DNA from: Candidatus Bathyarchaeia archaeon | Lineage (GTDB): Bacteria; Patescibacteriota; Microgenomatia; PFEM01; JAFGMK01 | NCBI GenBank assembly: GCA_035529595.1 | Contig: DATKWK010000017.1 | Coordinates: 250,961-314,960 of the forward strand | Length of the DNA stretch: 64,000 nucleotides | Reading direction: 5' to 3' | Shown here: positions 24,626 through 64,000 of the stretch, piece by piece | How the letters are laid out: each line of letters opens with the position of its first letter | How positions within the stretch are numbered: position 1 is the first letter of the stretch | Notes under the pieces: model-generated | Databases searched by the model: none | What the model was told of the DNA's origin: nothing | The model's input: only the letters and a program-made list of their open reading frames with translations | Position numbers and translations under genes: made by a program

Positions 24626-24627
24626 AG

Positions 24628-25416
24628 ATGAAGCGCTATTTTTCGCTGTATTTTCATTTTTTTACCAACTGCCTGATGAGAGATCTGGAGTTTCGATTTA
24701 ATGTTTTAACTTGGGCATTAATGAATTTCTTATGGTTTGGTTTGATATTTTACTCAATCGAGCTGATCTTTGGCCAAGTTGAAAAGATTGTCGGTTGGAC
24801 TAAAGGGGAGGTTCTGCTTCTGGTATGTGTTCAGGCTTTGTTTTTCGATTTTTTTAATACCTTTGTGATGGCAAATTTGAGGCGGTTTTCCCGGCTTGTT
24901 CGCCAGGGCGAACTAGATTTTGCCCTATTGAAGCCGATCAACTCCCGGTTTCTGGTTTCGGCTCGCTATTTTGAATTTGATCATTATCCGAGAATGGTTT
25001 TTCTAATGTTCCTGATAGCCAGGTATTTGGCCGATTTTCAGATTCGGCTTTCTTTGATAAATTGGTTTAATTTTTTTCTGCTTTTTTTCTCGGGAATTTT
25101 TATTTTCTATAATCTGTTTTTTATTTTTGCCACCACTAATATTTGGTTTATCAGGATTTTTAATCTAAGCGATTTGTTTACCGAGACGATCGAGGTTGGT
25201 CGGTTTCCTGTCTATATTTTTAAAACCGGAGCCAGATTCTTTTTTACCTACATTATTCCGGCTGCCTTTGTGGCCACTTTTCCGGTTGAGGTACTCTTGA
25301 AAAGAGCCGGCTTTGAGAAACTGCCGGTTGCTTTGGTGATTTGCTTGGTGATGTTTATCGTTTCCCAAAAGTTTTGGCAGTTTGCTCTTAAGCATTATCA
25401 ATCAGCCAGTTCCTAA
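24628..25416 (+). CDS. ABC-2 family transporter permease, type B (C-terminus ...HYQSASS)
   Basis: Paralog partner of the preceding gene. Start chosen at MKRYFSLYF, just after the upstream stop. Confidence 0.65.
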   Translation: MKRYFSLYFHFFTNCLMRDLEFRFNVLTWALMNFLWFGLIFYSIELIFGQVEKIVGWTKGEVLLLVCVQALFFDFFNTFVMANLRRFSRLVRQGELDFALLKPINSRFLVSARYFEFDHYPRMVFLMFLIARYLADFQIRLSLINWFNFFLLFFSGIFIFYNLFFIFATTNIWFIRIFNLSDLFTETIEVGRFPVYIFKTGARFFFTYIIPAAFVATFPVEVLLKRAGFEKLPVALVICLVMFIVSQKFWQFALKHYQSASS

Positions 25417-25422
25417 AAACCG

Positions 25423-26214
25423 ATGAAAAAATATTGGGCGATTTTCAAAATCTCTTGGCAAAGGAGTCTTGAGTATCGGGCTGAATTTTTAGCCCACATG
25501 ATGCGGAACGTGGTTTATTTAGTGGTTTTGATTTTTATTTGGGGGGCAGTTTTTAATCAAGTCGAAAGCTTTGGTGGCTACACCCTTCCTTCAATGGTCA
25601 CTTATTTAGTGATGGTCAGAGTGATTCATTTTGCCAATCGGGGCAATACCGGCCGAGCGATTGGGGAAGAAATTAAAAACGGCCAGCTTTCCCGCTATCT
25701 GGTCAAGCCGGTCAGTTATCTCAAATATTGGTTTTCTTTGTTTGGAGCTGACCGACTCTTTGATGGCTTAATGAGGTTGTTTTTTTTAGTCATTGCCTTA
25801 ATTGTTGTTCCTTATGTCTTTGAAATCACTTCAGTCAAAACTGTTTTGCTGTTTCTTTTATTCTTACCTTTTTCTTTAGCCCTTAACTTTCTAGTCAATA
25901 TTTTTATGGCCAGCTTCTCTTTTTGGGTGACGGATATCCGCTTGTTTGAAACCGTGGTTAGTTTAACTATTGGTTTTTTTGCCGGCGAGTTAATGCCCTT
26001 GGATATTTTGCCTGGCTTTTTGAAACAAGCGGCTCTTTTTTTGCCTTTTCAGTACGTCCTTTACTTTCCGGTTAAGATTTACCAGGGGACTTTGTCGAAT
26101 TGGGAAATGACCAGGGGATTTTTGTTAGTCTTTTTCTGGTTACTTTTAGGTTATTGGGTTCTAAAACGCTTTTGGCAGAAAGGATTAAAAAGATATGAAG
26201 CGGTGGGTCAATAG
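25423..26214 (+). CDS. ABC-2 family transporter permease, type A (C-terminus ...RYEAVGQ)
   Basis: Paralog of 23810-24625. Confidence 0.65.
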   Translation: MKKYWAIFKISWQRSLEYRAEFLAHMMRNVVYLVVLIFIWGAVFNQVESFGGYTLPSMVTYLVMVRVIHFANRGNTGRAIGEEIKNGQLSRYLVKPVSYLKYWFSLFGADRLFDGLMRLFFLVIALIVVPYVFEITSVKTVLLFLLFLPFSLALNFLVNIFMASFSFWVTDIRLFETVVSLTIGFFAGELMPLDILPGFLKQAALFLPFQYVLYFPVKIYQGTLSNWEMTRGFLLVFFWLLLGYWVLKRFWQKGLKRYEAVGQ

Positions 26215-27004
26215 ACTGAAGCGCTATTTTCGGATTTACCATCTCTTTGTTAAGTTTAGCTTGATTGACCTCTTCATTTTTAGAATTAATGCCATGGTTA
26301 TGGGGTTGGCACCGATTATCTGGCTGGCGACGATGATCGTTTTTTTGCTGACTATCTTTTCTCGGGTCAATAATTTGGGCGGCTGGACTTTTTGGGAAAT
26401 TGTTTTTTTAACCGGTGTTCAGGAGGTTGTTTTTCTTTTGTCTTGGTCAACCTTTATTCAAAACCTAAGAACTTTTGTCGACGATATTCGTTGGGGTCGG
26501 TTTGATTATCAACTTTTGAAACCGTTGAGCCCCCGTTTTACCGCCTCTTTTAAGTTAATTGATTTTACTAGTTGGGGCAGTTTGGCTAATTCTCTTTTTG
26601 TTTTTGTTTTTGCCTTTTTAAAAATTACTAATCGGATTGTCTTTCCGAGACTTCTGGCTTTTTTTGCCTTTTTGCTAATTGGTTACTGGATCGCCTATTT
26701 TCTCTATTTTATTTTTGCCTCTTTGGCTCTGTTTTTTATTGATTCTCGAGCTTTTATGGACCTGGTTTTTGATACTACTGATTTTAGTCGTTATCCAGCC
26801 GAGATTTACGCTCCCTCGGTTCGGATTTTTCTGACTTTCTTTTTGCCGATCTTGTTTTTTGCTTATTTTCCGACGGCTTTTCTTTTGGGGAAAATTAGTT
26901 GGTTTTACCTGTTTTTGGGAGCGGCGATTCTTTTAATTCTATATTTTGTTTCTGATTTGGTTTGGCAGAGGGGTTTGAGGCACTACCAATCAGCCAGTTC
27001 TTAA
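26195..27004 (+). CDS. ABC-2 family transporter permease, type B (C-terminus ...HYQSASS)
   Basis: Paralog of 24628-25416. 20-nt overlap with the upstream gene. Confidence 0.65.
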   Translation: MKRWVNRLKRYFRIYHLFVKFSLIDLFIFRINAMVMGLAPIIWLATMIVFLLTIFSRVNNLGGWTFWEIVFLTGVQEVVFLLSWSTFIQNLRTFVDDIRWGRFDYQLLKPLSPRFTASFKLIDFTSWGSLANSLFVFVFAFLKITNRIVFPRLLAFFAFLLIGYWIAYFLYFIFASLALFFIDSRAFMDLVFDTTDFSRYPAEIYAPSVRIFLTFFLPILFFAYFPTAFLLGKISWFYLFLGAAILLILYFVSDLVWQRGLRHYQSASS

Positions 27005-27028
27005 ACTATAATCACTAGGGGAGATGAA

Positions 27029-28012
27029 ATGTCGATCATTCAAGTAAAAAATCTTAGGAAATACTACAAGGTCCATCAAAAAGAACCCGGTCTTCTGGGG
27101 TCTCTTAAATCTTTATTCAAGAGGAAGTACAAAACTGTTAAAGCGGTTGATAATGTCTCCTTTTCTATTGACGAAGGGGAATTGGTCGGCTTCATCGGTC
27201 CCAACGGCGCCGGCAAAACCACGACTTTAAAGTGCCTCTCCGGATTGCTTTATCCGGACGGTGGTAAGGTTGATGTTCTGGGATTTAACCCCTGGGATCG
27301 AAAGCCTGAGTTCCAAAAGCAATTCTCGTTGGTTATGGGCCAGAAAAATCAGCTTTGGTGGGACTTGCCGCCGATTGAAACTTTCATCCTAAATCGGGAA
27401 ATTTATGAGGTACCCAAGAAAAAATACGACGAAGTTCTTTCCGAATTAACCAAACTCCTGGAAGTTGAAGAGGTTTTGCGGGTTCAGACCCGTAAACTTT
27501 CCCTCGGTCAACGGATGAAATGCGAACTGATTGCCGCTCTGATCCATTCGCCTAAAGTCTTATTTTTGGATGAGCCGACCATTGGTCTGGATGTGGTGAT
27601 GCAAAAAAAGATGCGCGATTTTATCAAGGAATATAACCAGCGGTATAAATCGACTATCATTCTAACTTCTCATTACATGGGCGATGTTAAAGAGCTTTGT
27701 GAAAGAGTGGTTATTATCGATAAAGGAAAATTAGTTTTTGACGGTAAATTGGCAGAAATAATCCAAAAATATGCTGATCATAAGGTTCTTTCGGTCGTTT
27801 TCGCCAAAGAAATCGACCCAAAAAAATTATCAGAGATCGGCGAAATAAAACAATATCAGTTTCCCAAAGCGATTCTTTCAGTGGAAAGAGCGACGGCACC
27901 CATGGCGGCCGCCGAACTGCTGCGCCAGTTTCCGGTCGCCGACCTGACGCTAGAAGAAGAAAAGATTGAAGATATCATCCGGGAACTGTTTACCGGCAAG
28001 GATTATGCCTAG
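27029..28012 (+). CDS. ABC transporter ATP-binding protein (COG4586-like)
   Basis: Walker A GPNGAGKTT, signature LSLGQRMK, Walker B LFLDEPTIGLD, H-loop SHYM. C-terminal extension of about 80 aa. Confidence 0.9.
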   Translation: MSIIQVKNLRKYYKVHQKEPGLLGSLKSLFKRKYKTVKAVDNVSFSIDEGELVGFIGPNGAGKTTTLKCLSGLLYPDGGKVDVLGFNPWDRKPEFQKQFSLVMGQKNQLWWDLPPIETFILNREIYEVPKKKYDEVLSELTKLLEVEEVLRVQTRKLSLGQRMKCELIAALIHSPKVLFLDEPTIGLDVVMQKKMRDFIKEYNQRYKSTIILTSHYMGDVKELCERVVIIDKGKLVFDGKLAEIIQKYADHKVLSVVFAKEIDPKKLSEIGEIKQYQFPKAILSVERATAPMAAAELLRQFPVADLTLEEEKIEDIIRELFTGKDYA

Positions 28013-28026
28013 TAATTTAGAATAGA

Positions 28027-28827
28027 GTGATGAGAAAATACTTCTTTTTTGGCAAAACCGTTTTTCAGGAATATCTCACCTATCGCCTGAGTTTTGTCCT
28101 TTGGCGATTTAGAAACCTGATTAGCTTTTTAGCCTTGATATTCTTATGGTTGGCACTTTACGCCGGCCGGACGGAACTTTTAGGCTACCGGAAAGAACAG
28201 ATATTAACTTATGTCATTGGGGTTGCCTTTTTAAGGGGTGTTGTTTTGGCTTCCCGGACAGCCGATTTGGCCGGCCGGATAAATTCCGGAGAACTGGTAA
28301 AAGATCTGCTTAAACCAATCGGAATTATGAAGATTTACTTTACGCGTGATTTAGTGGATAAATTGCTTAACCTGACTTTTTCCTTTTTCGAAATTGCGCT
28401 TGTCCTCCGGTTTTTTAAATTTTCTCTCTATCTGCCCAAAAGTCAGCTTACTTTTGTTGCTTTTTTAGTTGCATCGTTTATCTCGATTATTCTTTATTTT
28501 CTGATCAGTTTCTGGTTGTCGCTGCTTTCCTTTTGGGTTGACCAGCCGTGGGCGCCGCGCTGGCTGTTTGGGATTATTTTTCTGGAGTTTTTCTCAGGCG
28601 GTATTTTCCCTCTTGATGTCTTGCCGGCTGTTTATGTAAAAATCGCCTCCCTGACCCCTTTTCCTTATCTGATTTTCTTTCCGCTTAAAATCTGGCTTGG
28701 CCAGATTGATCCGAGGCAACAGCTTAAATTAATCATGATCTCTCTATTTTGGGTGATTTCTTTCTGGGTTATCCTTAAAAAAACCTGGATTAAAGGGATA
28801 AAAACCTATACTGCTTATGGTGGATGA
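28027..28827 (+). CDS. ABC-2 family transporter permease, type A (C-terminus ...TYTAYGG)
   Basis: Third type-A paralog. Confidence 0.65.
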   Translation: MMRKYFFFGKTVFQEYLTYRLSFVLWRFRNLISFLALIFLWLALYAGRTELLGYRKEQILTYVIGVAFLRGVVLASRTADLAGRINSGELVKDLLKPIGIMKIYFTRDLVDKLLNLTFSFFEIALVLRFFKFSLYLPKSQLTFVAFLVASFISIILYFLISFWLSLLSFWVDQPWAPRWLFGIIFLEFFSGGIFPLDVLPAVYVKIASLTPFPYLIFFPLKIWLGQIDPRQQLKLIMISLFWVISFWVILKKTWIKGIKTYTAYGG

Positions 28828-28851
28828 TTTACTGTTTGGGCGCTTTTTTAA

Positions 28852-29646
28852 ATGAAAAACGCTAAAAAATTTTTAAAAGTTTGGTTATTGATGGCTAAAA
28901 TGTCGGCCCAGGATCAATTAACCAGTAACTGGGGTGGATTTATTTTTTTGATCGGTAAAATTGTCCGTTTTTTCTTCTTTTCCCTTTTTCTTTTCTCCGT
29001 TCTCGCTGCTTCCGAGACGCTTGCCGGTTATACCCGTGAGCAAGTAATCCTATTTTTTTTAGTTTTTAATCTGGTTGATATTACCTGCCAATTTCTTTTT
29101 CGCGGGGTTTATGTTTTCCGCTGGCGGATCGTCAGCGGTGATTTTGATTTAGATTTAGTAAAACCGCTGCCGTCTTTTTTCAGGCCTCTTTTTGCCTGGA
29201 CGGACTTTTTCGATTTTGTGACCCTCTTTCCCCTTATCGGATTTACAGTCTGGTATCTGATTGCCTACCAGTTAACCTTTTCCTGGTTAGACCTGTTGCT
29301 GTTTTCCCTTCTTTTTTTTAATTCTCTGATTGTCGGTTTTGCAGTTCACCTATTTGTCAGTTCAATCGGTGTCATTACTACCGAAGTTGATCATTTGGTT
29401 TGGATTTGGCGGGACCTTTTTAATTTAGCCCGCTTTCCGACTGACATTTATTCACCCGGCTTGAGGCTGCTGCTGACTCTAATATTTCCAGTCGTGATTG
29501 TCGTAACCGTACCGGCTAAAGCTTTAATGGGCTTGTCAAGCTGGCCAATCATATTTGGATCATGCGGATTCGGTTTTTTAATCTTAGTTTTATCGCTTAA
29601 GTTTTGGCGCTATGCGCTGAAGCGTTATAGCAGCGCTTCAAGTTAG
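28852..29646 (+). CDS. ABC-2 family transporter permease, type B (C-terminus ...RYSSASS)
   Basis: Third type-B paralog. Confidence 0.65.
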   Translation: MKNAKKFLKVWLLMAKMSAQDQLTSNWGGFIFLIGKIVRFFFFSLFLFSVLAASETLAGYTREQVILFFLVFNLVDITCQFLFRGVYVFRWRIVSGDFDLDLVKPLPSFFRPLFAWTDFFDFVTLFPLIGFTVWYLIAYQLTFSWLDLLLFSLLFFNSLIVGFAVHLFVSSIGVITTEVDHLVWIWRDLFNLARFPTDIYSPGLRLLLTLIFPVVIVVTVPAKALMGLSSWPIIFGSCGFGFLILVLSLKFWRYALKRYSSASS

Positions 29647-31716: not shown

Positions 31717-32349
31717 ATGCCAATATTAATGTACCCTTCCGTTATTTATCTTGCTGTAGTGAATTTAATTCCTCTACTGGGTATTCTATTTTTCGGCTGG
31801 AGTGTTCAAGATATTCTGATTTTATATTGGTGTGAAAGCGGCGTTATCGGTTTATACAACGTTTTAAAAATGCTTTTCGTGAAGAATATTCATGCGAATT
31901 TAACGCTTTTCCCTGGGGTTATTTATAGGTTGTTTGTCATTGTATTTTTCATCGTTCATTTCGGCGGTTTTATGTTCATTCACGGTCTGGCTATTTTAGC
32001 CTTAACCAGTCCCGGTAATATAATCGGTATGGATTATTTACCGGGTGTTTTAAAGCCCTTGTGTTTTGGAATTATTGGTTTCTTTGTAAGCCACGGACTT
32101 TCTTTTATTCAAAATTACCTTCTCGGAAAAGAGTATCTCAAGTCCAATCTCGAAAATCTGATGTTTCAGCCCTATGGCCGGGTGGTGATAATGCATTTAT
32201 CGATTTTGTTTGGCGGATTTATTTTTGTTCTTTTTAATGCGCCTGTTTTCTTGCTGGTAATGCTGGTTGTGATAAAGACGACACTTGATATTATTGCTCA
32301 TGTTAAGGAAAGAATAAAATTTAGTAAGCTACCGGAAAAGAATAATTGA
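31717..32349 (+). CDS. hypothetical polytopic membrane protein
   Basis: 210 aa with 6 hydrophobic helices. No recognisable family. Confidence 0.4.
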   Translation: MPILMYPSVIYLAVVNLIPLLGILFFGWSVQDILILYWCESGVIGLYNVLKMLFVKNIHANLTLFPGVIYRLFVIVFFIVHFGGFMFIHGLAILALTSPGNIIGMDYLPGVLKPLCFGIIGFFVSHGLSFIQNYLLGKEYLKSNLENLMFQPYGRVVIMHLSILFGGFIFVLFNAPVFLLVMLVVIKTTLDIIAHVKERIKFSKLPEKNN

Positions 32350-32368
32350 ATATTGGCAAACTAATTTC

Positions 32369-32480
32369 TTTTACTTGTTACAAGTGCTGATATAATTTTA
32401 AGTCAGCAAGAAGGAACGATCTTTTCGGATAATACGCAGGGTTTTAATGAAATTACGAAAATAATTCGTAAAAAGAATAA
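32369..32480 (+). promoter_or_regulatory. conserved promoter + 5'-leader element, copy 1 (TTTTAC-16-TATAAT, then AGTCAGCAAGAAG...ATACGCAGG...TTACGAA-aataa-TTCGTAA hairpin)
   Basis: About 100 nt, with a second near-identical copy at 35585-35695. The -10 lies at 32391-32396 and the conserved +1 region starts at 32401. Confidence 0.5.
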
Positions 32481-32522
32481 ATTATACCCGTCTATTTTTC
32501 TGGCTAAAAATTAAAAATCATA

Positions 32523-33029
32523 ATGAATCAAAAAAAGCTGGGTAACGAAATCGAGCGGAAATTTTTGATTAAAAAGATGCCTGATTTAAGTAATTTAAAA
32601 TCGGTAGTTTGTGAACGCTATTATATTTACCGAGATGAGGTGATTGAACTGCGTGTTCAAAAGATTGGCAACAAATATGAGATTGAACGTAAAGAAATAA
32701 TTAATAAGTTGAAAGCAATTAAAACAAAGTTGGCGATTTTTAAACATGAGTTCGGAAAACTAAAGCGGCTTTGCTCTGCTACAATAGTAAGAGAGAGTTA
32801 CAATATTAGTTCTGATCCCGACGTTTCCATTAAGATATATCACGGTAAATACGAAGGTCTAAGAAAAATCGAAGTCGAGTTTAGTTCGGAAGAAGAAGCA
32901 AGCTTTTTTCAAATTCCTGATTGGTATGGAGAAGAAATTACTGATTCGCTGGTTTCGAGAGATTCAAAATTACTCGATTTGAATGATGAAGAATTTAAAA
33001 TGATTCTCGAGGAAAAAAACAACCACTGA
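32523..33029 (+). CDS. CYTH-domain protein (triphosphate tunnel metalloenzyme family)
   Basis: N-terminal EIERKFLIKK is the CYTH signature (ExExK), followed by alternating charged beta strands. Confidence 0.65.
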   Translation: MNQKKLGNEIERKFLIKKMPDLSNLKSVVCERYYIYRDEVIELRVQKIGNKYEIERKEIINKLKAIKTKLAIFKHEFGKLKRLCSATIVRESYNISSDPDVSIKIYHGKYEGLRKIEVEFSSEEEASFFQIPDWYGEEITDSLVSRDSKLLDLNDEEFKMILEEKNNH

Positions 33030-33087
33030 ATGATGCGTTATTCTTTAAATAGAAATTATTAAATAGTAAAATGTCATTGGTAAAAAT

Positions 33088-33651
33088 ATGAGACAAGAAA
33101 CTTTATTAGAAAGGTTGAAAGAAAAATCAAAAGAAATTATGGGGAAAGGAAAACATTTTCATGACTTTGCTCATGTAACGGATGTTTATAGAAATGTTGA
33201 AAAATTACTTAAATATGAGCGAGGGAATAAGCTGGTTTTATTAACAGCTGCTCTATTTCATGATGTAAAAAGAGACTCTCAGAGTCATGGGACTGGAGGA
33301 GCAAAATATGTAAATGAACTTCTTAAATCGATTCCAGAATTTCCTCAGGATTTGATAGATTCTGTTGTAAAAGTTATTGATTCCCATGATAAAGAGCAAA
33401 AAACACAAGATGAAAAATTGTTTTATGATGCGGACAAAATGGATGCATTCAATGAATTGGCAACAGCAAGATCATTTATGATGTATTCTAAAGAAGAATT
33501 ATCATTAAAGGAAGCCTGTTTTAAGTATTTGGACTTAATTGACCTTTTTTTCAATAAATTACATACGGATACAGCCAAAAAACTAATTAAAAAAGAGTAC
33601 GAGGAAACTAAACGGTTTGCTTTAAAATTAGTTAAAAGATATGAACAATGA
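33088..33651 (+). CDS. HD-domain phosphohydrolase
   Basis: H...HD motif (HDFAHVTDVYRN...LLTAALFHDVKRD), then a downstream D. Confidence 0.72.
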   Translation: MRQETLLERLKEKSKEIMGKGKHFHDFAHVTDVYRNVEKLLKYERGNKLVLLTAALFHDVKRDSQSHGTGGAKYVNELLKSIPEFPQDLIDSVVKVIDSHDKEQKTQDEKLFYDADKMDAFNELATARSFMMYSKEELSLKEACFKYLDLIDLFFNKLHTDTAKKLIKKEYEETKRFALKLVKRYEQ

Positions 33652-33868
33652 CGTGCCTCTTAGAGACTTTTCCTCACTTCGTTCGGTCGGCACATTGCAC
33701 TCTCGCTATCGCTCGGCTTACTTAACACGGCTTATGCGGGAACCTTGTAGCGCTTCGGTTTCCCAAATCCATTTCGTGGACTCCGTTTAAGCCGATACGT
33801 CATATTTAATTTGATTTTTTGGCTTTGCAATCGTACACTTTATGTCAGCCAACTAGCCTTAATATCTT

Positions 33869-34429
33869 ATGAAAGCAATAATTATTCCGGGAAATGGAAC
33901 AACATACATAACTGATAATTGGTTCCAAAATGTCAAAAGAGGATTGGAGAAATTAGGATTAGATGTAATTGCGGAAAACATGCCCGACCCAGACCTGGCA
34001 AGAAAAGAATATTGGCTTCCTTTCATCAAAGAAAAGTTATCTACCGAAGATTCGATTTTAATTGGCCACTCCTCTGGGGCGGTGGCGATTTTAAGATATC
34101 TTGAAGAAAATGAATGTAAACTCGCAATCTTAGTTGGTGTTTGTTATACGGATTTGGGTGATGAATATGAAAAGAAGAGCGGATATTTTAACCAACCTTG
34201 GCAATGGGACAAAATTAAAAAAAATGCCGAAAAGATAGTAATATTTGCGTCAAAAGACGATCCATACATCCCAATTTCTGAGCCATTGTTAATTAAAGAA
34301 AAGACCAATGCTGAATATCATGAGTACAGCGACGAAGGACATTTTGGAGAAGACGTCAACAAAAAAGAATTTCCTGAAATAATTACAGTGGTTAGTAAGT
34401 TTATGCAACGCCAAAAAATCAAACTTTAA
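33869..34429 (+). CDS. RBBP9/YdeN-like alpha/beta serine hydrolase
   Basis: IIPGNGTT...WF...ILIGHSSGA nucleophile elbow and a C-terminal D/H. About 186 aa, as in PF06821. Confidence 0.6.
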   Translation: MKAIIIPGNGTTYITDNWFQNVKRGLEKLGLDVIAENMPDPDLARKEYWLPFIKEKLSTEDSILIGHSSGAVAILRYLEENECKLAILVGVCYTDLGDEYEKKSGYFNQPWQWDKIKKNAEKIVIFASKDDPYIPISEPLLIKEKTNAEYHEYSDEGHFGEDVNKKEFPEIITVVSKFMQRQKIKL

Positions 34430-34497
34430 AATTTTCCTTCGGGCCGTTGTACGAAATCGGCTCCTAGCAAAGCTTATTAAATTGAATTAATATTAAT

Positions 34498-34827
34498 ATG
34501 ACTATGATTACACTCGACGATTTCAAGAAGCTCGAGATTAAAATCGGCAAGGTAAAATCTGTAGAAAAAGTTCCTGATGCCGTTAAGCTACTCAAATTTA
34601 TTTTTGACGTTGGTTCCGAGGAAAGACAAATAATCGCTGGTATGGCTGAGTTTTTTACTGATCCATCAATGCTGGTAGGTAAAGAAATGCCGGTTTTGAT
34701 GAATATCCAGCCGCGTACTTTCAGAGGCTATATAAGTCATGGAATGATTATTGCCGCTGACGTAAATGGTCAGCCGGTACTGTTATATCCTGAAAAAGAA
34801 ATTCCCGCCGGAAGTATAGTGAGATAA
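34498..34827 (+). CDS. tRNA-binding domain protein (Trbp111/CsaA, OB fold)
   Basis: LDDFKKLEIKIGKVKSVEKVPDA.KLLKF.FDVGSEERQIIAGMAEF is the classic Myf/CsaA motif order. Confidence 0.72.
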   Translation: MTMITLDDFKKLEIKIGKVKSVEKVPDAVKLLKFIFDVGSEERQIIAGMAEFFTDPSMLVGKEMPVLMNIQPRTFRGYISHGMIIAADVNGQPVLLYPEKEIPAGSIVR

Positions 34828-34933
34828 ACTGCTATTATGAAAACATATGCTACCGTAATTGGTATCGTCAAATTTGGCGAAAAATTTTACTTTTGAAAAG
34901 AAATCCTGACAGACATTCTTCTCCAAATTTGTT

Positions 34934-35437
34934 ATGGAAATATTGAAAGAAATAAAAGATAAAGAATTTCCTAGTGATGAATCAACTTTGGAAATTAGGG
35001 AAGCTTCAAGAGCTGTACTTTTTGATGAGAATGGCCTAATTCCTTTGCTATTTGTTTCGAAATATAACTATCATAAACTTCCTGGAGGTGGTATCGATGT
35101 TGGTGAGGATAGAACGAAAGCGCTAGCCAGGGAAGTTAAAGAGGAAGTCGGAAGTGAAATAGAAGTCACAGGTGAAATTGGTCAGGTTATTGAATTTCGC
35201 TCAAAATGGAATTTGAAACAAATATCATATTGTTATCTTGGGAAAGTAATCTCAAAAGGTAAGCCTGATTTCACGGAAAAGGAATTAAGTCAAGGATTTA
35301 AACTCGTTTGGTTGCCTTTAAGGGACGCAATTTCCAAAGTTGAAAATGATAAACCAAAAAATTATGAGGGTTCTTTTATTCAGAAAAGAGATATTGTATT
35401 TTTAAAAAAAGCCAAGCAGATGTTACGGGCAAATTAG
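34934..35437 (+). CDS. NUDIX hydrolase
   Basis: Nudix box GGGIDVGEDRTKALAREVKEEVG. Confidence 0.8.
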   Translation: MEILKEIKDKEFPSDESTLEIREASRAVLFDENGLIPLLFVSKYNYHKLPGGGIDVGEDRTKALAREVKEEVGSEIEVTGEIGQVIEFRSKWNLKQISYCYLGKVISKGKPDFTEKELSQGFKLVWLPLRDAISKVENDKPKNYEGSFIQKRDIVFLKKAKQMLRAN

Positions 35438-35584
35438 CAACGTGCGCCGCTTCGTTACGCACCCCGCTGTGTTTTCACTTCGCTGTGTTTTGTTCGGGGT
35501 CACATAACACTGCTATGCAGTACGTTTATGTAAACTAAACCTAATCCTGATAAGATTAAAATCAGGACTCCATATCGAATAAAA

Positions 35585-35695
35585 TTTTTGTTATCCAAAG
35601 TGCTAAAATAATTTGGAGTCAGCAAGAAGAGACAATCGTCTCGTATGATACGCAGGATTTATTTGAGTTACAAAACACTTCGTATAAAAAAGAGT
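35585..35695 (+). promoter_or_regulatory. conserved promoter + 5'-leader element, copy 2 (TTTTTG-16-AATAAT; AGTCAGCAAGAAG at 35617; ATACGCAGG at 35648)
   Basis: Aligns along its length with 32369-32480. Its variable segment forms a GAGAC-aatc-GTCTC hairpin. Confidence 0.5.
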
Positions 35696-35716
35696 CAGGC
35701 GAAATCAGATAGCATT

Positions 35717-36499
35717 ATGGCAGTATCAAAAGATATTGAAAAGAATCATATTAAAGGCTTCAAAAGGGAAATCGCTAAACAAAAAAATAGAAATGATTTT
35801 TTTACCTGGTTTACTAGTTCAAAGAATGCTGATTCAGCACTTGTACAAGGCCATTGGGATTTTTCACTACATATAGCCTATCCACTCGCCATATTCTTAA
35901 AAAATCCTGAAGAAAAAATTGTTCTAGAAATTGGGCATGGTGGAGGAAGGATGTTACTATCAGCCGCGCAACATTTTAATACTGCTATTGGGATTGATAT
36001 CCATGATAGTAATGCTATCGTAGAAGATGATTTAAAGATAAGAGGAGTTCATAATTTCAAGTTAATTAAAACCGACGGTAAAAATATACCTTTAGATGAG
36101 AATTCGGTTGACCTTGTTTATTCCTTTATTGTTTTGCAGCATGTTGAGAAAATTGAGATTTTTGAAAATTATTTTAAGGAAGCATACCGAATACTCAAAC
36201 CTAACGGATTAGCAATTCTTTATTTTGGTAGATATTATAAGTTCTCTATTAATAGAGCTTCTAAATTTTTATATTTACTAGATAATTTCTTAGAATTGAT
36301 TAAATTAAAAGGCAGGTATTTGGAACTTCCTGCTCGCATCAATGAGATTAATTTAAAAGTTTCTTTGATATATGCTAAAAAAATTGCTAAGAAATTTGGT
36401 TTTGAAGTTTGCAAAACACTTGTTTCTCATAAGAAAGTTCCAAATGGTATGCGGCTATATGGGGGACAACATGGTCTTATACTTCAAAAACCACACTAA
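35717..36499 (+). CDS. class I SAM-dependent methyltransferase (Methyltransf_11-like)
   Basis: VLEIGHGGGRML motif I, then LVYSFIVLQHV and ILKPNGLAILYF. I prefer the start at MAVSKD (35717). The track ORF start at 35645 lies inside the conserved leader. Confidence 0.68.
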   Translation: MAVSKDIEKNHIKGFKREIAKQKNRNDFFTWFTSSKNADSALVQGHWDFSLHIAYPLAIFLKNPEEKIVLEIGHGGGRMLLSAAQHFNTAIGIDIHDSNAIVEDDLKIRGVHNFKLIKTDGKNIPLDENSVDLVYSFIVLQHVEKIEIFENYFKEAYRILKPNGLAILYFGRYYKFSINRASKFLYLLDNFLELIKLKGRYLELPARINEINLKVSLIYAKKIAKKFGFEVCKTLVSHKKVPNGMRLYGGQHGLILQKPH

Positions 36500-36642
36500 G
36501 CTCTACACCCGATGTGGTTTTCTTCTTGAACCTCGGTTGTCTTCTTTTTTCGTTCCTATACGAGGTGGTTCTAGCGCTTCTTTCGCTCTTATGCGTTATA
36601 ATACCTAAAAAGTTTGTTTTTGAATTTAAAAAATTCCGTAAG

Positions 36643-37821
36643 ATGGAATCTAAGGTTAAGAAATATTACATTAAGACTTTTGGCTGTCAGATGAATGAGG
36701 CGGAGTCGGAGATGATTGCCGCTGGCTACGAATGCCGGGGTTGGAAACAGGTAAAAAACTGGCAAGAGGCGAATGAGGTAGTGATTAATTCCTGCTCGGT
36801 CCGGGAATCAGCGGAAAATCGGGTTTTCGGATTGGTTAATAATATTAGTAAATTTAAAATTAAAAATACAAAATGCGAAAGTACAATTCGAAATCTAAAA
36901 CTTGAAAGACCAAAGATAATTCTGAGCGGTTGTATGGTCGGGTCAGCTATGGGAGAAAGAAAGAGATATACTTTCAAACAATTAAAACAAAGGCTGCCGC
37001 AAGTGGCTGAGTTTAGGCCCTGGTGGGAATGGGATTTTAAAAAGATGAAAGCTATTAAGACCCGAAAGGATAAGCAGAAGGCTTTGGTGCCAATCATGAC
37101 CGGCTGCAATCACTTTTGCAGTTATTGCGTTGTCCCATATGCCAAAGGTAAAGAAATTTCTTTTCCCTTTGAAGACATTCTTTGTCAAATAAAAGAATTC
37201 GGCAAAAAAGGTTGGCAGGAGGTTATTCTACTCGGTCAAAATGTCAATACTTACGGTAAAGATTTTACCAAAGAAGAAAAAGATAAGATTATTTCTTGCT
37301 ATCATGATTCATGTCATAGTATCAAAGATATTTCGATTTTTTCTTTGCTATTAAGAGCCGTTCATAAAATTAAAAAGATAACCAAAATCTCTTTTCTGAC
37401 GTCGAATCCCTGGGATTTAACCGACGATATTATCCAAGCGATGAAACTGCCGAAGGTTGACCGGTATTTGCATCTGCCCCTGCAATCAGGTGACAACACA
37501 ATACTTAAAAATATGAATCGGCCTTACACGGTTGAACAATATTGGGAATTAGTCAGAAAGATCAGAAACGAAATTCCGGGGATAAAGATCGGCACTGATC
37601 TTATCGTCGGTTTTCCGGGGGAAACCAAAAAAGCCTTTGAAAACACGGTCAAACTCTGCCAAAAAATCGGTTTTGAAAAAGCCTATATTGCTATGTATTC
37701 TCCGCGCCCCGGAACTTCTGCTTTTAAATTTAAAGATAATATTTCTTACCAGGAGAAAAAACGAAGGTGGTCGGTCTTGGAAAAATTGATAAACAAAAAA
37801 TTGTCGGTTAAAGAAAGTTAA
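36643..37821 (+). CDS. MiaB/RimO-family radical-SAM methylthiotransferase (with an internal insertion)
   Basis: MTTase N-domain (YIKTFGCQMNEAESE...VVINSCSVRE), radical-SAM CNHFCSYCVVP and a TRAM-like C-terminus. Start chosen at ATG 36643 (MESKVKK). A TATAAT at 36594 lies upstream. Confidence 0.82.
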   Translation: MESKVKKYYIKTFGCQMNEAESEMIAAGYECRGWKQVKNWQEANEVVINSCSVRESAENRVFGLVNNISKFKIKNTKCESTIRNLKLERPKIILSGCMVGSAMGERKRYTFKQLKQRLPQVAEFRPWWEWDFKKMKAIKTRKDKQKALVPIMTGCNHFCSYCVVPYAKGKEISFPFEDILCQIKEFGKKGWQEVILLGQNVNTYGKDFTKEEKDKIISCYHDSCHSIKDISIFSLLLRAVHKIKKITKISFLTSNPWDLTDDIIQAMKLPKVDRYLHLPLQSGDNTILKNMNRPYTVEQYWELVRKIRNEIPGIKIGTDLIVGFPGETKKAFENTVKLCQKIGFEKAYIAMYSPRPGTSAFKFKDNISYQEKKRRWSVLEKLINKKLSVKES

Positions 37822-40675: not shown

Positions 40676-41683
40676 ATGGTTAGAAAAGTCGAAGTATCCC
40701 ACCGGACGATTGTTTTTACGGTTCTTTTTCTGGTTTTCCTCTGGCTGCTTTATCAAATTAAGGACATTATTTTTAATCTCTTTATTGCTTTTGTGATGAT
40801 GGCGGCTCTCAATTCCTCAGTAGAAAAAATGGAAAAGATTAAAATCCCCAGGCCGATTGCCATTATCATGATTTATTTGGTTTTTTTCGGTTTTATCAGC
40901 GTGGTGATAGCTGGAGTTATTCCCCCCTTGGTTGATCAAACTTCAACTCTGATTAATAAAATCCCAAACTACGTCAAGGAAATTAACCTTCCTTGGCTTA
41001 ATAAGGAGGCAATTTTGTCCCAGTTTTCGTCCCTGGCATCAATTCCTGAAAACTTGGTTAAATTAACGGTTAATGTGTTCAGGAATATTCTGGCAATTTT
41101 CGTACTGGCGGTTATTAATTTCTACTTATTGATGGAAAGAAAAAACCTGGGAAAATATTTAACCGTTTTATTCGGAGGTGATGGCCATGACAGAGCAGCC
41201 AAATTTATCGAAAGATTGGAGGGGCGTTTGGGAAGCTGGGTTAGAGCTGAGCTTCTTTTGATGACAATTATTGGGGTTATGTCTTATATCGGTTTGAGAA
41301 TTTTAGGTATTGATTTTGCTCTGCCATTGGCGGTTTTTGCTGGTTTTTTGGAAGTTGTGCCCAATATCGGGCCGACTATTTCAGCGATTCCGGCGGTGAT
41401 TTCCGGTTTGACTATATCTCCTCTATACGGTTTAGCGGTATTGGCTCTTTATTTCTTAATTCAACAGGTTGAAAACAGTATAATTGTCCCTAAGGTGATG
41501 GAAAAAGGACTTGGTCTTAATCCCTTAGTGGTTATTGTCTGCTTGGCAGTTGGTTTAAGGCTTGGGGGTATTATCGGTATGATATTGGCGATTCCCGTCT
41601 TTCTAGTGATCCAAGAAATTTCTTCAGAAATTGTTATTCTGGATCGTTTTTCCAAAAACTCAAAAAGCCCGGGAAGCTTGTAA
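40676..41683 (+). CDS. AI-2E family transporter (UPF0118/PF01594)
   Basis: 8 TM helices and the family-typical loop IERLEGRLGSWVRAELLLMTIIGVMSYIGL. Confidence 0.82.
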   Translation: MVRKVEVSHRTIVFTVLFLVFLWLLYQIKDIIFNLFIAFVMMAALNSSVEKMEKIKIPRPIAIIMIYLVFFGFISVVIAGVIPPLVDQTSTLINKIPNYVKEINLPWLNKEAILSQFSSLASIPENLVKLTVNVFRNILAIFVLAVINFYLLMERKNLGKYLTVLFGGDGHDRAAKFIERLEGRLGSWVRAELLLMTIIGVMSYIGLRILGIDFALPLAVFAGFLEVVPNIGPTISAIPAVISGLTISPLYGLAVLALYFLIQQVENSIIVPKVMEKGLGLNPLVVIVCLAVGLRLGGIIGMILAIPVFLVIQEISSEIVILDRFSKNSKSPGSL

Positions 41684-41995
41684 GCCAGATTCTGTTCTCC
41701 GGCTAAAAGTCGGAGTGCAGCTATCTATCTTGTGCCCTCTATCCTTGAAGCGTAGCCGAAACTTCGGCTTCGGGGAAGCATCCTGGTAACGCTTCGGTCG
41801 GAGGTTGCAGCGGGGAGGGTTGCCTCTTTTCACTCTCTATTCCGACAGTTACGTCGGACTGAGTCGTCGTCTCTGTGGTCCTATCTGTCTTCCGACTTTG
41901 CAGTCGGAGCCTCCGAATTTACTCGGAGCACCCTGCTTCCTGCTGTCTGGACTTTCCTGGCCGAAATTTCGGCCTCGCTGCCGGCTTCCCGGACC
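41667..41995 (-). ncRNA. rnpB: RNase P RNA (bacterial type; compact)
   Basis: The minus strand reads ...CCGGGAAGC(P1)...CCAGGAAAGUCCAGACAGCAGGAAGCAGGGUGCUCC...ACAGAAUCUGGCUUA...GCUUCCCGG(P1'). The universally conserved P4 is present, with the bulged U and compensatory changes (AAGUCCAGA / UCUGGCUU). The RNA has many UUCG/GAAA-capped helices. The 3' P1 strand overlaps the last ~17 nt of the AI-2E gene. The end coordinates are approximate (about 10 nt either way). Confidence 0.78.
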
Positions 41996-60057: not shown

Positions 60058-60954
60058 ATGGATAATGAACATGATCATCTCACGAGACAAGAGGCTGTTA
60101 CTCTTGCTGATGGACCGCTTTCCGAAACCATTGCCGGACCGGAATTGCCGGTAGTTGATCAGATCGTTTTTCTTTGGGCTGAATATCATGACCGATATCC
60201 GCCTTTTATGCCTTCCCCGGAAATTGCTTTTGATCCGGGTGGAGAAGAACGCCATCTGAGTTTATTGGTCAGGCGTGATCTTGAACCTAATACTGTTGCC
60301 CAGGAGGGATTTTATCCCACAGTAACTAGAGTTATTCAAGAGCAAAGCAGCTTTCTGCGTCGAAGAGATGAATTTCCAGCTGACGAAAAATCTCGTTTAG
60401 GTAGAATTTCAGATAGACATAGAACTATCAATTCCGGAATCAAGGTAATCTTTCAAAATCCTCACTATCAGCCGATCTTGGCTTTACCTGGATATTACTT
60501 TATGTTTGATAATATGAGACTTAGTATGTTTGATTTCCGTAATGGCCAAGTTGTCCCTGGTGAAATAGGAAAATATATCCAATATGCACCGGCTTACTTA
60601 GCTTTAGGCCACGATCCTGCCTATTTGGCTCTTAATCTTTGGCACGACGACCAAGCTGACGGTCGTCGTCAAGTAGTCCGCGCTTTCTATGACCAGTTTC
60701 CGCCCCAGTTGCAACAGTTTTATCGGGATATTTTTTGTCACAATCTTTTAAGAAAAGGAATCGAAGTTTCTTTGGATCAACTCAAGCAAGCAATCAATCT
60801 TTCCGAAAAAACACCTGCCGAGCGTCTGGAGCACCAGCAACGCTGTATTGCTACCCTCGGTTTACTGGAAACAGCTTTATCCTTACCGGCAACAGTTGCC
60901 GCTTTAGCTGATTCAATCGGCCGTCCGTTTGTTGCTCTTGCTTCTTCTTCATAA
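60058..60954 (+). CDS. hypothetical protein (GC-richer composition, no recognisable family)
   Basis: 298 aa. Internal short repeat YAPAYLALGHDPAYLALNLWHDD. A leaderless-like start directly after a TATAAT at 60041-60046. Confidence 0.5.
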   Translation: MDNEHDHLTRQEAVTLADGPLSETIAGPELPVVDQIVFLWAEYHDRYPPFMPSPEIAFDPGGEERHLSLLVRRDLEPNTVAQEGFYPTVTRVIQEQSSFLRRRDEFPADEKSRLGRISDRHRTINSGIKVIFQNPHYQPILALPGYYFMFDNMRLSMFDFRNGQVVPGEIGKYIQYAPAYLALGHDPAYLALNLWHDDQADGRRQVVRAFYDQFPPQLQQFYRDIFCHNLLRKGIEVSLDQLKQAINLSEKTPAERLEHQQRCIATLGLLETALSLPATVAALADSIGRPFVALASSS

Positions 60955-60985
60955 GAAAACTTCTACTTTATGATAGACTGGAATC

Positions 60986-62068
60986 ATGCTTGGCCAACGG
61001 AATTACCTGAAAAATCTGAACTTTATCAAAAAACTTGCCAAAAAAAAGAACTGGCAAATAGATTTTAAGCTGGTTGGGCAGAAATTGAGAAAAGATCGCC
61101 CCCATTTTCTGGATTTCCCTTTGGTTGATGATTCAGGCAAAACATTGTTTTTTAAAACCTGCATATTCGGCCGGCAGGATCTCTGTCCGGGATTGCGAAA
61201 TGAATTTGCAATTCAAGAGTGGCTTGAATCAATCGGCGGTCCGGTAGGTAAAATCTATGATTACGCTGGTAAAGGTGACCTTTTTTGGTATGTCCGGGAG
61301 TATTTTCCCCAGGACGAGGGGGTTATCTGTCAGGAAGAGGATGTGTCACCTCTTAATGTCAGTAATATAACCCAACTTGCCGGCTGGCTTAAATTTCTCT
61401 GGCAGATAAAAAAATCCCAGATCCCGGCGGATCTATTTAACCGGCTCCTGTTAACACCCAAGAACTACCGGACTTTCAAACAGTTTGAAGAAAAAGTTAT
61501 CGAATATTTATCCATGCTTGATCAAGCTTTTAAAATCAAGAATTTAATTTGGCAAGAAAAAGATCGAGACAAAGTTCTTGTTTTTATCAGGCAAGTAAAA
61601 TCCGAAATTGTCGCTGTTGAAAACGGGGAGGGTATTGTTGTCCACGGTGACTTATCGCCCAATAATATCTATTTTGGAAAAAAAGTAATTATCTTTGACT
61701 GGGAGTGGATCTGTTATTGCGACAACCTGTTATTGGGTTTGGGAATTGATGTGGCTAATTTTTATACCCGCTCTTGGCAAAGACTTAAGTTGGGAAAAAA
61801 GTTTCTCGAGGAAGTGAAAAAACAAAACTTATTTAATAAGAGTATCTTTAATCAGGCCTTGCGGATTGGCATGGTCTTTTCGGTCTTACAAAAACTCGGT
61901 CCCATATTCAGGCACGGTTTTTATGAAAGTGAATACGACCAGCGCCACTTCAATGTCTTGGTTAAAATTATGAGGGAATACATTTCTGAGGTGTCAGGGT
62001 TTTACACCTTGGAGGCAGCTGGTGTTCTGGTTGTGCGGCAGAGGTCGGAAAAACAAGATTTCTCTTGA
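60986..62068 (+). CDS. aminoglycoside-phosphotransferase (APH)/choline-kinase-like protein kinase-fold enzyme
   Basis: Brenner motif VVHGDLSPNNIYF and a downstream IIFDWEW (D-x-E). 360 aa. Confidence 0.68.
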   Translation: MLGQRNYLKNLNFIKKLAKKKNWQIDFKLVGQKLRKDRPHFLDFPLVDDSGKTLFFKTCIFGRQDLCPGLRNEFAIQEWLESIGGPVGKIYDYAGKGDLFWYVREYFPQDEGVICQEEDVSPLNVSNITQLAGWLKFLWQIKKSQIPADLFNRLLLTPKNYRTFKQFEEKVIEYLSMLDQAFKIKNLIWQEKDRDKVLVFIRQVKSEIVAVENGEGIVVHGDLSPNNIYFGKKVIIFDWEWICYCDNLLLGLGIDVANFYTRSWQRLKLGKKFLEEVKKQNLFNKSIFNQALRIGMVFSVLQKLGPIFRHGFYESEYDQRHFNVLVKIMREYISEVSGFYTLEAAGVLVVRQRSEKQDFS

Positions 62069-62193
62069 GGTAAAGATTAGATTAATTGGAACATATACAT
62101 TAGAGTCCTCCATACCCTGAAAGAAATCAGAACTCTTTTCCGCGAAAATCCCGACGCTGAATTTCGTGCTAACTTCGTTGGCGCGCCGCCTCG

Positions 62194-62985
62194 TTAGTTT
62201 TTGTTTAAGATTTCTTCAGCTTTCCGTCTTCCGGTTGACCGCAATAATAGATTGTCATTCCCATCAATATCAAGATAGGACGATAATCTTCCGAGTTTAA
62301 TTGCTGATTGTTTAAAATTGTGTCGTTTCAAACTCTTTATAAGATTATCTTTACTAATTCTTTTCGGATATTTTTTGTATAAAATAAGCAAGCTACACTC
62401 TGGAACACTTTTAAATTTTTTATTATCTACATAAATTCGCCCATCAATTTCTTCAAAAATTGGGTATTTGCGTTCAATCAAAGAGTCAATAATTTTTTTT
62501 GTTTCCTCAATACTTATTAGATTTTTAGCCGAAAATCTAAAAAGCTCTGCTAATATCCAAGAACACATCGGTAAAACAGTGGAACAATCCATCTCGTTAG
62601 CGTCTACCTCGTCGGAATCATGCCTGCCTCCGCGATTTGAAGTAATATCGTAAACAAAAATACTTGCACGAGGTATTTGAAGCCGAATACCATCGTCTGC
62701 GATGGTTGTAGTATTAACTTGATCTATAATTTTTTGAGCGAACGATGTAGCTTTAAATTCTTTTTGTTTTGTGGGTAAAGAGTTGCCGGCAAAAACCCAC
62801 AATAATTTTATAGTTGCTTCAATAAATTTACCGGCTTTGGTTAATGAAGTTTCCCAGTCGCCTTCTTCAAATTTTTGTACACATAAAATATAATGACTAA
62901 CAATTGAATTAACTCTTTTAGCTTCAAATTTTTGTCCCAACAGGTTTTTTATTTGGCCTTCTGCTTTCATAACACATTTTTCCAT
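62194..62985 (-). CDS. hypothetical protein (N-terminal helical domain with an SNRGGRHDSDE motif; C-terminal putative winged helix)
   Basis: 263 aa with AT-rich codons. The C-terminus SVPECSLLILYKKYPKRISKDNLIKSLK...LLLRSTGRRKAEEIL looks like a wHTH. First gene of the AT-rich island. Confidence 0.5.
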   Translation of the reverse strand: MEKCVMKAEGQIKNLLGQKFEAKRVNSIVSHYILCVQKFEEGDWETSLTKAGKFIEATIKLLWVFAGNSLPTKQKEFKATSFAQKIIDQVNTTTIADDGIRLQIPRASIFVYDITSNRGGRHDSDEVDANEMDCSTVLPMCSWILAELFRFSAKNLISIEETKKIIDSLIERKYPIFEEIDGRIYVDNKKFKSVPECSLLILYKKYPKRISKDNLIKSLKRHNFKQSAIKLGRLSSYLDIDGNDNLLLRSTGRRKAEEILNKN

Positions 62986-63365
62986 TCATTTGTAAGATTA
63001 TATTTTCCATATTCTTTTGAATTAATCCAACCACGGGTTTTTGCGTCATTCGGATAAAACATATTAAATTTGCCAAGTAGGGTTTTTGCAGTCATTTTAT
63101 TCCAACACTTCTTTAGTTCGCTTAGCTCGATATTTTTGCTTTTATCTCCCTTAGAAAGATAAGCGAGTAGTAAAGTGAACCTTTTAGGGCCACTTTTATC
63201 TATAGTATATCTTTTAACAAAAGCTCGCTCATTAAGAGAAAAGTCCACATTAGTTCCCGGCAGTTTCTTGGAGGGTGTTTTGCTTGTTTTTGTATCAGGG
63301 CCAAATACTGCTTTTTCAAGCTTTTCAATTCTGGCTATAATTTGAGTTAAATTATTATCTGTCAC
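62967..63365 (-). CDS. hypothetical small protein, paralog A
   Basis: 132 aa. Shares architecture with the next gene: an N-terminal helix (IIARIEKLEKAVF), a Lys/Thr/Ser-rich linker, a domain with RFTLLLAYLSKGDK, and a C-terminal NEWKNVL. Confidence 0.45.
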   Translation of the reverse strand: MTDNNLTQIIARIEKLEKAVFGPDTKTSKTPSKKLPGTNVDFSLNERAFVKRYTIDKSGPKRFTLLLAYLSKGDKSKNIELSELKKCWNKMTAKTLLGKFNMFYPNDAKTRGWINSKEYGKYNLTNEWKNVL

Positions 63366-63377
63366 TTTTTTATTTAA

Positions 63378-63719
63378 TTATTTTCTTAATACATATTCCC
63401 AATTTTTTGTATCCTTATTTTTAAGTCGGTTAAATACTCGTCTTTTTGTTAAATTTAATAAATTCATAGAGATGGATGTTTGTGGGTAGTATCTTCCAAT
63501 TTCTTTTAATTTCTCCATAATAGAGGCGATGTTTTGGGGTTTATCGAAAAAACCATCCTCAGTTAACAAAGTCAGCGCTCCTATTGCACCCTTTGGAACA
63601 GAAGTTCCATCTCTTTTCTTGGCCGACTGTTTTTTAGCAGGCGTTACTCCAGATAATACCGCAAGTTCATCTACTAAATTTTTAATTTGTTCTGCGATTT
63701 TTTGTGCGTTTCTTTCCAT
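63378..63719 (-). CDS. hypothetical small protein, paralog B
   Basis: 113 aa. N-terminal helix (IAEQIKNLVDELAVL), Lys-rich linker, GALTLLTEDGFFDK, and a C-terminal KNWEYVL. Confidence 0.45.
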   Translation of the reverse strand: MERNAQKIAEQIKNLVDELAVLSGVTPAKKQSAKKRDGTSVPKGAIGALTLLTEDGFFDKPQNIASIMEKLKEIGRYYPQTSISMNLLNLTKRRVFNRLKNKDTKNWEYVLRK

Positions 63720-64000
63720 AGATTTATAAGTTAATATTATTTATTATTATAATAATATACTTACCATTTTTTATTGTCAAGTTTAAATGTGAGTAAATTA
63801 ATGAAGTAAAGTTAACAATTAATGGTACAACTAATAGTTTATTAGTAAATTACTAATACTAAGTAAATGTTTTGTTGTCATAAAACTCTTATTTTAAGAG
63901 TAAAAGTTAACTTTTAGTCGACTATTTTAATAATTATATTTATTTATTAGAAAATAAATATAATATACTACACCCAATGTCGTTTTCTCCTCGCATATCG

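Follow-up and report, generated by a model that had tools for sequence, protein, structure and literature searches.

A three-gene cassette and its leader at 62165-63963

The DNA under study is a window of 64,000 nt (positions 250,961 to 314,960) from a 385-kb metagenomic contig, DATKWK010000017.1, in which a discrete, self-contained cassette of about 1.8 kb was found at 62165-63963. The cassette consists of three genes on the minus strand, here called A, B and C, and a non-coding leader. Gene A (63378-63719) encodes a protein of 113 aa, gene B (62967-63365) a protein of 132 aa and gene C (62194-62985) a protein of 263 aa when read from its first ATG. The open reading frames (ORFs) of B and C overlap by 19 nt, and a gap of 12 nt separates A from B. 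Translation of C probably begins at Met6 (62970), for a protein of 258 aa, because this codon forms an ATGA overlap with the stop codon of B and because the deposited gene calls and most homologues of C begin at the same residue. An ATGA stop/start overlap is an arrangement known from translationally coupled genes. All three genes were found to be under strong purifying selection, with ratios of nonsynonymous to synonymous divergence (dN/dS) of 0.06-0.14.

The guanine-plus-cytosine (GC) content of the cassette is 31.1%, compared to 40.5% for the rest of the window. The lowest value for any 1.8-kb stretch in the first 62 kb is 32.2%, above that of the cassette. An earlier note on this DNA, made from the letters alone, had described the three ORFs and their spacing, an abrupt change in base composition, a nearly pure A/T end at 63720-64000 and a palindrome in a small GC-rich patch. 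The coordinates and the compositional break were confirmed, the leader (63720-63963) was found to have a GC content of 16%, and the palindrome, GGCGCGCC, was located at 62180-62187 in the 3' tail of the cassette.

The borders of the cassette were placed by comparison to other genomes. The 3' tail (62165-62193, minus strand) lies right after the stop codon of C, and DNA similarity to other genomes stops here, with blastn limits at positions 11540-11555 of locus L001, equivalent to 62165-62180 of the window (window position is 73720 minus the position in L001). A block in this tail, CGAGGCGGCGCGCCA, is common to loci L011 and L003, with unrelated sequence beyond it. At the opposite border, similarity of the leader to other genomes begins at L001 position 9757, which is 63963 of the window.

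The conserved non-coding leader (63720-63963, minus strand) is 244 nt long and aligns with the leaders of loci L011, L003, L014 and L015. Its divergence (K of 0.20-0.45) was two- to six-fold lower than the synonymous divergence of the adjoining genes (dS of 0.5-2.4), and the leader thus appears to evolve under constraint, with the caveat that AT-rich alignments flatter identity and so weaken this comparison of K to dS. A sigma-70-type promoter was identified at 63752-63780 (minus strand), in which TTGACA and TATTAT are separated by 17 nt and agree with the consensus at 11 of 12 positions; the end of the -10 hexamer lies 32 nt ahead of the gene A start codon. The elements CTTGACA and TATATTAT are invariant or nearly so among leaders of the candidate phyla radiation (CPR) clade. 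The -10 region and transcript start also form an AT-only dyad, ATATTATT-N9-AATAATAT, which is indistinguishable from chance. Ahead of gene A, the CPR-clade copies have no Shine-Dalgarno-like sequence (TTATAAATCTATG, window 63720-63751), and copies from other phyla have AGGAG.

Two further elements were found in the leader. An inverted repeat (I17) forms a palindrome at 63898-63919 in its distal part (L001 9801-9822), at which position relatives carry a hairpin of the form AAAAAAGTCGGC-loop-GCCGACTTTTTT. The stems of this hairpin vary among copies yet pair (GTCGGC/GCCGAC versus ATCGG/CCGAT), and the element looks like a two-way terminator or insulator. A conserved block, TTTACTAAnAAAnTATTAGT, was read from the alignments at 63830-63850 and displays a dyad, ACTAA-N7-TTAGT, in several copies; a TTTACTAA...TATTAGT block lies in the leader. 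The TTTACTAAnAAAnTATTAGT block, in very AT-rich sequence, is a candidate operator.

Predicted domains of proteins A, B and C

The curated libraries Pfam, NCBIfam and PADLOC (PADLOC-DB 2.0) were scanned with A, B and C, with 53 distant members of the C family and with broad sets of A and B homologues. No match above threshold was obtained for any of these sets, and none of the three window proteins was matched to a family, in accord with the earlier note, which had recognised none.

Protein C was modelled with confidence by AlphaFold2 (predicted local distance difference test score, pLDDT, of 83.9). The model comprises helices from residue 8 to 170 followed by a helix-strand domain at 177-262, and has the form of an N-terminal HEPN-like helical bundle (residues ~8-170) fused to a C-terminal winged helix (residues 177-262). 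The all-alpha, up-and-down bundle superposes on solved HEPN domains. When the model was used as a Foldseek query, no match reached a significant E-value, and the matches of highest probability were HEPN entries and AbiV. Profile searches against PDB sequences gave no match to the HEPN part and sub-threshold winged-helix matches only for the C-terminus; likewise, distant members of the family had only weak winged-helix-type matches in PADLOC.

The conserved motif of C was examined in 53 diverse members of its family. It occupies residues 112-122 (YDITSNRGGRH) of the window protein and has the family consensus Y-D-I-R-N-x-R-G-x-x-H, in which R118 is conserved in 52 of the 53 members and H122 likewise in 52; E56, D133, E147 and R150 are also nearly invariant. 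The canonical catalytic motif of HEPN domains is Rx4-6H, and R115-x6-H122 fits this rule in 40 of the 53. R118 and H122 are candidate catalytic residues of the HEPN-like domain. Both features that had been singled out in this protein beforehand, a possible catalytic motif (SNRGGRHDSDE) and a winged-helix-like C-terminal segment, proved to be real: the SNRGGRHD stretch is the nearly invariant R...H signature of the family, and the segment corresponds to residues 177-262 of the model.

Proteins A and B share a layout of N-terminal helix, basic low-complexity linker and conserved C-terminal domain. In B, the helix is amphipathic (IIARIEKLEKAVFG), the linker is rich in Lys, Ser and Thr, and the C-terminal domain spans about 90 aa. 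In A, the linker is Lys-rich and the C-terminal domain covers residues ~43-113. By comparison of a broad A-family profile to the PDB, the best match of A was BlaI (1p6r), a winged-helix repressor, at an E-value of 0.023, followed by AspA at 0.2; both are sub-threshold, and residues ~43-113 are a probable winged-helix domain at that level of evidence. No similarity of A or B to the winged helix of C was detected by hhalign.

The earlier description of the two small proteins as clearly paralogous was overstated. By BLASTP, A and B match with an E-value of 0.018 over the N-terminal 40 residues only. By hhalign, the probability of relationship is 0.15% for the close families and 43.5% for the broad alignments (E-value of 2.4e-4 over 97 collinear columns). 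Direct similarity is thus not significant, and what speaks for kinship is the shared architecture together with mosaic intermediates: a third class of small gene, found in four-gene loci, encodes an N-terminal helix of the B type (RLEKAVF) and a C-terminal domain of the A type. On this comparison, A and B would be modular relatives at best. Their N-terminal modules were also found to co-vary by clade, both being helical in the CPR clade and both beta-type (MAKAxIxxxxGxxVxxEG with MKVxIxVxDDxGxxFxGEVxL) in Acidobacteriota and others. Because of this co-variation, A and B may pair via their N-termini.

Mobility, distribution and genomic neighbourhood of the cassette

Over the cassette, two genomes share 79-82% DNA identity with the window and several others 70-72%, with unrelated flanks. 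The unit of identity is the three genes plus the leader, and loci L003 and L011 have the cassette alone in common. Because this block of about 1.8 kb, leader included, recurs between unrelated flanks, comparison of the sequences indicates that the cassette is a horizontally mobile module. Its GC content is below that of the flanks in 75 of 78 loci, by a mean of 6.2 points. The suggestion of horizontal acquisition in the earlier note is upheld by the recurrence, by this shift towards AT and by a patchy distribution over more than 10 phyla.

For each of A, B and C, more than 200 close homologues (52-89% identity; 216 for A) were detected on the same contigs, mostly in Patescibacteria (CPR), and protein identity reaches 88% with a copy in a Candidatus Buchananbacteria genome. 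A profile of C recovered 773 clusters at 50% identity (E-value of 0.001 or less). Among species-representative genomes, the hosts include Patescibacteria, many Acidobacteriota, Bdellovibrionales, Planctomycetota, Verrucomicrobia, Chloroflexota, Nitrospira, Nitrosomonas, Alphaproteobacteria, Gemmatimonadota, Rokubacteria, Omnitrophota and others. Most copies are carried on long chromosomal contigs.

Gene order was surveyed by running hidden Markov models of A, B and C over all ORFs of the C-family loci, with a sample of 70 non-redundant loci that had at least 1.4 kb upstream of C. By this approach, A- and/or B-like genes were found directly upstream of C in 69 of the 70 loci, and genes of both types in 52. 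The order A-B-C was most common (39 loci), followed by A-A-B-C (9), A-A-C (7), B-C (5) and A-C (4); A-B-C followed by another A-like gene was found at 2 loci, other combinations at 3 and C alone at 1. Some non-CPR loci have an extra A-like gene downstream of C (L019 2148-2492, L025 2286-2606, L075 6246-6572 and L076 8769-9095), and in others (e.g., L022, L024, L037 and L040) unrelated genes overlap the stop codon of C. No family of conserved fourth genes was found downstream of C, where only isolated pairs occur.

The distribution bears on whether A, B and C are simply an ordinary core operon of the lineage with a low GC content that arose by chance. A second, milder low-GC stretch (33-36% GC) lies at 32000-37800 of the window and looks ordinary in content: it encodes an HD domain protein, a serine hydrolase, a NUDIX protein, an S-adenosylmethionine (SAM) methyltransferase and a MiaB-like radical SAM enzyme, and a DUF6498 protein is encoded just upstream. 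Since these are ordinary enzymes, low GC alone is no marker of a cassette, a point in favour of a core operon. By contrast, no other 1.8-kb stretch of the window is equally AT-rich. Comparison of orthologous loci, which the earlier note had proposed as the means to recognise a core locus, revealed that the loci are not syntenic. The patchy occurrence over unrelated phyla, with the close copy in Candidatus Buchananbacteria, also argues against this explanation, which we consider scarcely credible.

The genes beside the cassette differ among genomes. Parts of restriction-modification systems, including D12 and N6/N4 methyltransferases, Vsr, Tsp45I, ICEA, TdeIII and HinP1I, are the neighbours most often recognised. 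In a set of 148 neighbours, scored with no control set alongside, 6 matched methyltransferases, 3 endonucleases and 2 Vsr. HEPN families are known to occur beside restriction-modification and Abi genes (PMC3710099). In one CPR genome, a D12 methyltransferase and a 381-aa gene are directly upstream of the cassette (L003 7120-9555), and in another this position is occupied by a cytosine methyltransferase, a NOV_C protein, a HinP1I-like endonuclease and Vsr (L009 6600-8865). These two restriction-modification sets look complete, and DNA identity between genomes stops short of them. On a 1.87-Mb contig (L006 7600-20800), the cassette is situated in an apparent defence or mobile island with a RES-domain toxin and partner gene, an HTH_17 protein with a tyrosine integrase, an AbiEii protein with its upstream gene, and a 1486-aa helicase with nSTAND3, DUF559 and MTES_1575 matches.

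An att-like repeat or integrase beside the cassette, for which the earlier note had advised a search, did not materialise: no integrase, transposase or att-like repeat was found in the source contig as far as 10 kb to each side of the cassette, and no terminal direct or inverted repeats suggesting site-specific insertion were seen by eye at the cassette borders. When the flanking kinase-like gene (60986-62068) was used to look for a strain without the cassette, the source contig alone was recovered. On the other side of the cassette, an 83-aa gene lies beyond the window edge. Two adjacent genes on the plus strand (60058-62068) converge on the cassette; one product, of 298 aa, has no family match, and the other, of 360 aa, has a weak APH/kinase-fold match (E-value of 5e-6).

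Viral and plasmid sequences were also searched (IMG/VR viral contigs, 50,697 GenBank phage records and 72,556 plasmid records). No relative was found in IMG/VR or the phage records, and the plasmids gave one distant match, of 28% identity and limited to the HEPN part, on archaeal Natronomonas PL131. Plasmid carriage was rejected apart from this match, and a phage origin was rejected on the empty IMG/VR and GenBank phage searches, so that the phage-derived alternative raised in the earlier note fell away. Small, unannotated, AT-rich genes are typical of phage cargo and an integrase is near one locus, which speaks for prophage cargo or an anti-defence operon. Nevertheless, the source contig has no phage structural or replication genes flanking the cassette, and derivation from a phage is, in our estimate, very improbable.

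A remnant of plasmid or integrated-element maintenance or partition was considered as well, in which A and B would bind a centromere or operator in the manner of TubR or AspA and C would be accessory. TubR and AspA are among the structural or weak sequence matches, the leader has repeated and dyad elements, and the cassette moves between genomes. On the other side, no partition NTPase, replication gene, integrase or transposase accompanies the cassette, the plasmid records hold the one HEPN-limited match only, and chromosomal contigs carry most copies. We regard a partition function as doubtful on balance.

The remainder of the window was surveyed for other features. Six ORFs of ~265-277 aa on the plus strand (23810-29646) are mutual paralogues of 24-32% identity that form two sets of three and lie around a gene with a Walker-A-like GPNGAGKT motif (27029-28012). 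The AT skew of this region is strongly negative (-0.28 to -0.41), and the six ORFs appear to encode permease subunits of an ABC-type transporter that have multiplied. The sole match in an Rfam scan of the window was an RNase P RNA of bacterial class A at 41665-41992 (minus strand), with a score of 100.8 bits that is barely above the gathering score. No tRNA genes were found in the 64 kb. Proteins of the contig carry the NCBI label 'Candidatus Bathyarchaeia archaeon'; this archaeal label appears to be a mistake made in binning or labelling, because the bacterial class A RNase P RNA and type IV pilus genes (PilM/N/O) are on the same contig.

A possible HEPN-based toxin-antitoxin or abortive-infection-type module

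We assign a probability of about one half to the cassette being a mobile tripartite HEPN toxin-antitoxin or abortive-infection-type module. This interpretation is based on the fold and motif of C, on the conservation of the operon and the purifying selection on its genes, and on a cassette that is mobile and has its own promoter. The toxin-antitoxin and defence roles raised in the earlier note are plausible because C has a HEPN-like fold and motif. In addition, the adjacent small genes, the stop/start overlap and a promoter conserved in relatives are features shared with toxin-antitoxin operons.

For catalysis, neutralisation and trigger, we infer the following course. The cassette would be expressed from its own insulated sigma-70 promoter in the AT-rich leader. 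C would be a putative RNase effector that acts as a dimer and whose modelled winged helix may bind nucleic acid. A and B would serve as small adaptors in which a basic linker joins an N-terminal module for pairing to a winged-helix-like domain; they would pair through their N-termini, keep C inactive and probably act as repressors of the cassette promoter. Phage infection, loss of the cassette or a comparable trigger would release C, which would then cut cellular or invader RNA and bring growth to a stop.

The proposed module was compared to known systems. HEPN toxins (AbiJ/Abi_C, AbiV, AbiU2, the HEPN-MNT toxin and LsoA/RnlA) resemble it in that the modelled bundle of C appears closest to solved HEPN domains, the Arg...His motif lies about two-thirds along the domain, and C too is encoded in small mobile operons, often beside restriction-modification genes (PMC3710099). 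C differs from them in its winged helix fused at the C-terminus, in its invariant pair of R-x3-H and in its partners, which are two new small proteins rather than an MNT nucleotidyltransferase, RnlB or AbiEi; with regard to the type VII (HEPN-MNT) systems, no nucleotidyltransferase match was found in A or B and none is adjacent. Tripartite toxin-antitoxin systems (omega-epsilon-zeta and paaR-paaA-parE) similarly have three packed, co-oriented genes, with genes for small proteins of putative DNA-binding type first and a large putative toxin last, and share with the cassette an own promoter and horizontal spread. The cassette proteins have no sequence or fold relation to those of omega-epsilon-zeta or paaR-paaA-parE, the regulator and antitoxin roles of A and B are putative, and the small genes number from one to three per locus.

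In the type IX retron, a winged-helix protein wraps the active site of a non-canonical (not Rx4-6H) HEPN nuclease until a phage cue is received (bioRxiv 10.64898/2026.07.14.738597). The A-B-C locus likewise combines a non-canonical HEPN-type protein with a winged helix; unlike in the retron, C carries its winged helix on the same polypeptide as the HEPN domain, and A and B are unrelated to the retron winged-helix protein. No reverse transcriptase was found within 10 kb of the cassette, and no retron RNA was matched by Rfam in the window. Roquin also joins a HEPN domain to a (ROQ) winged helix; it differs from C as a eukaryotic, non-catalytic RNA binder of other domain order, and no homology is implied. 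By analogy, the closest mechanistic pictures for the cassette may be a tripartite toxin-antitoxin system and the type IX retron effector pair.

Several findings weigh against a toxin-antitoxin or abortive-infection-type function. In the window C and its subclade, R115 is replaced by T115, such that the first Arg of the family R-x6-H is absent and the R118-x3-H122 that is left falls outside Rx4-6H. No HEPN model of Pfam, NCBIfam or PADLOC matches the window C, and the Pfam model Abi_C is matched by only 4 of the 53 distant members at E-values of 0.02 or worse; because no curated HEPN profile matches, we describe C as HEPN-like by modelled fold and motif and assign it to no named HEPN family. 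The sub-threshold standing of the winged helix in A is a further weakness, as is B, which has no match in Pfam, NCBIfam, PADLOC or PDB profile searches and for which the structure model was poor. Finally, most neighbours of the cassette are ordinary or housekeeping genes, and the enrichment in defence islands is modest and lacks a control.

An alternative that accommodates an inactive HEPN-like domain is a non-toxic regulatory or chromatin-type module, in which three nucleic-acid binders control genes of the host or element and the HEPN-like bundle of C has no role beyond dimerisation or the binding of a ligand, like that of sacsin or of nucleotidyltransferase C-terminal domains. R118, H122 and several acidic and basic residues are, however, nearly invariant in very divergent members, a pattern characteristic of catalytic sites. 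With a pure regulator, the target neighbourhood should stay fixed, yet the flanks are unrelated among genomes, and the wide horizontal spread and AT shift better fit selfish or conflict modules. We judge a regulatory module to be unlikely.

Returning to the toxin-antitoxin or abortive-infection-type module, a stronger version may be entertained tentatively, as a possibility we do not favour: the cassette would belong to a widely transferred tripartite HEPN-based abortive-infection family, in which two modular winged-helix adaptors with co-evolving N-terminal modules sense an invader cue and release a HEPN-winged-helix RNase.

Literature searches yielded no description of an A-B-C operon. A, B and C are new to Pfam, NCBIfam and PADLOC 2.0, whereas the effector superfamily (HEPN) and the logic of conflict systems are already known. 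If the HEPN domain is inactive, what is left is a mobile set of small proteins that bind nucleic acid. If instead C is an active HEPN RNase restrained by A and B, a compact, promoter-equipped three-gene conflict system would be added to the known repertoire, one that contains two protein families outside every curated database and in which the co-varying N-termini of A and B suggest, as a design principle, a pairing interface that can be swapped. The defences of CPR bacteria are poorly known, and to our knowledge Patescibacteria largely do without CRISPR. Should the abortive-infection version be true, the cassette would be among the few dedicated immune modules common to ultra-small Patescibacteria and soil Acidobacteriota.

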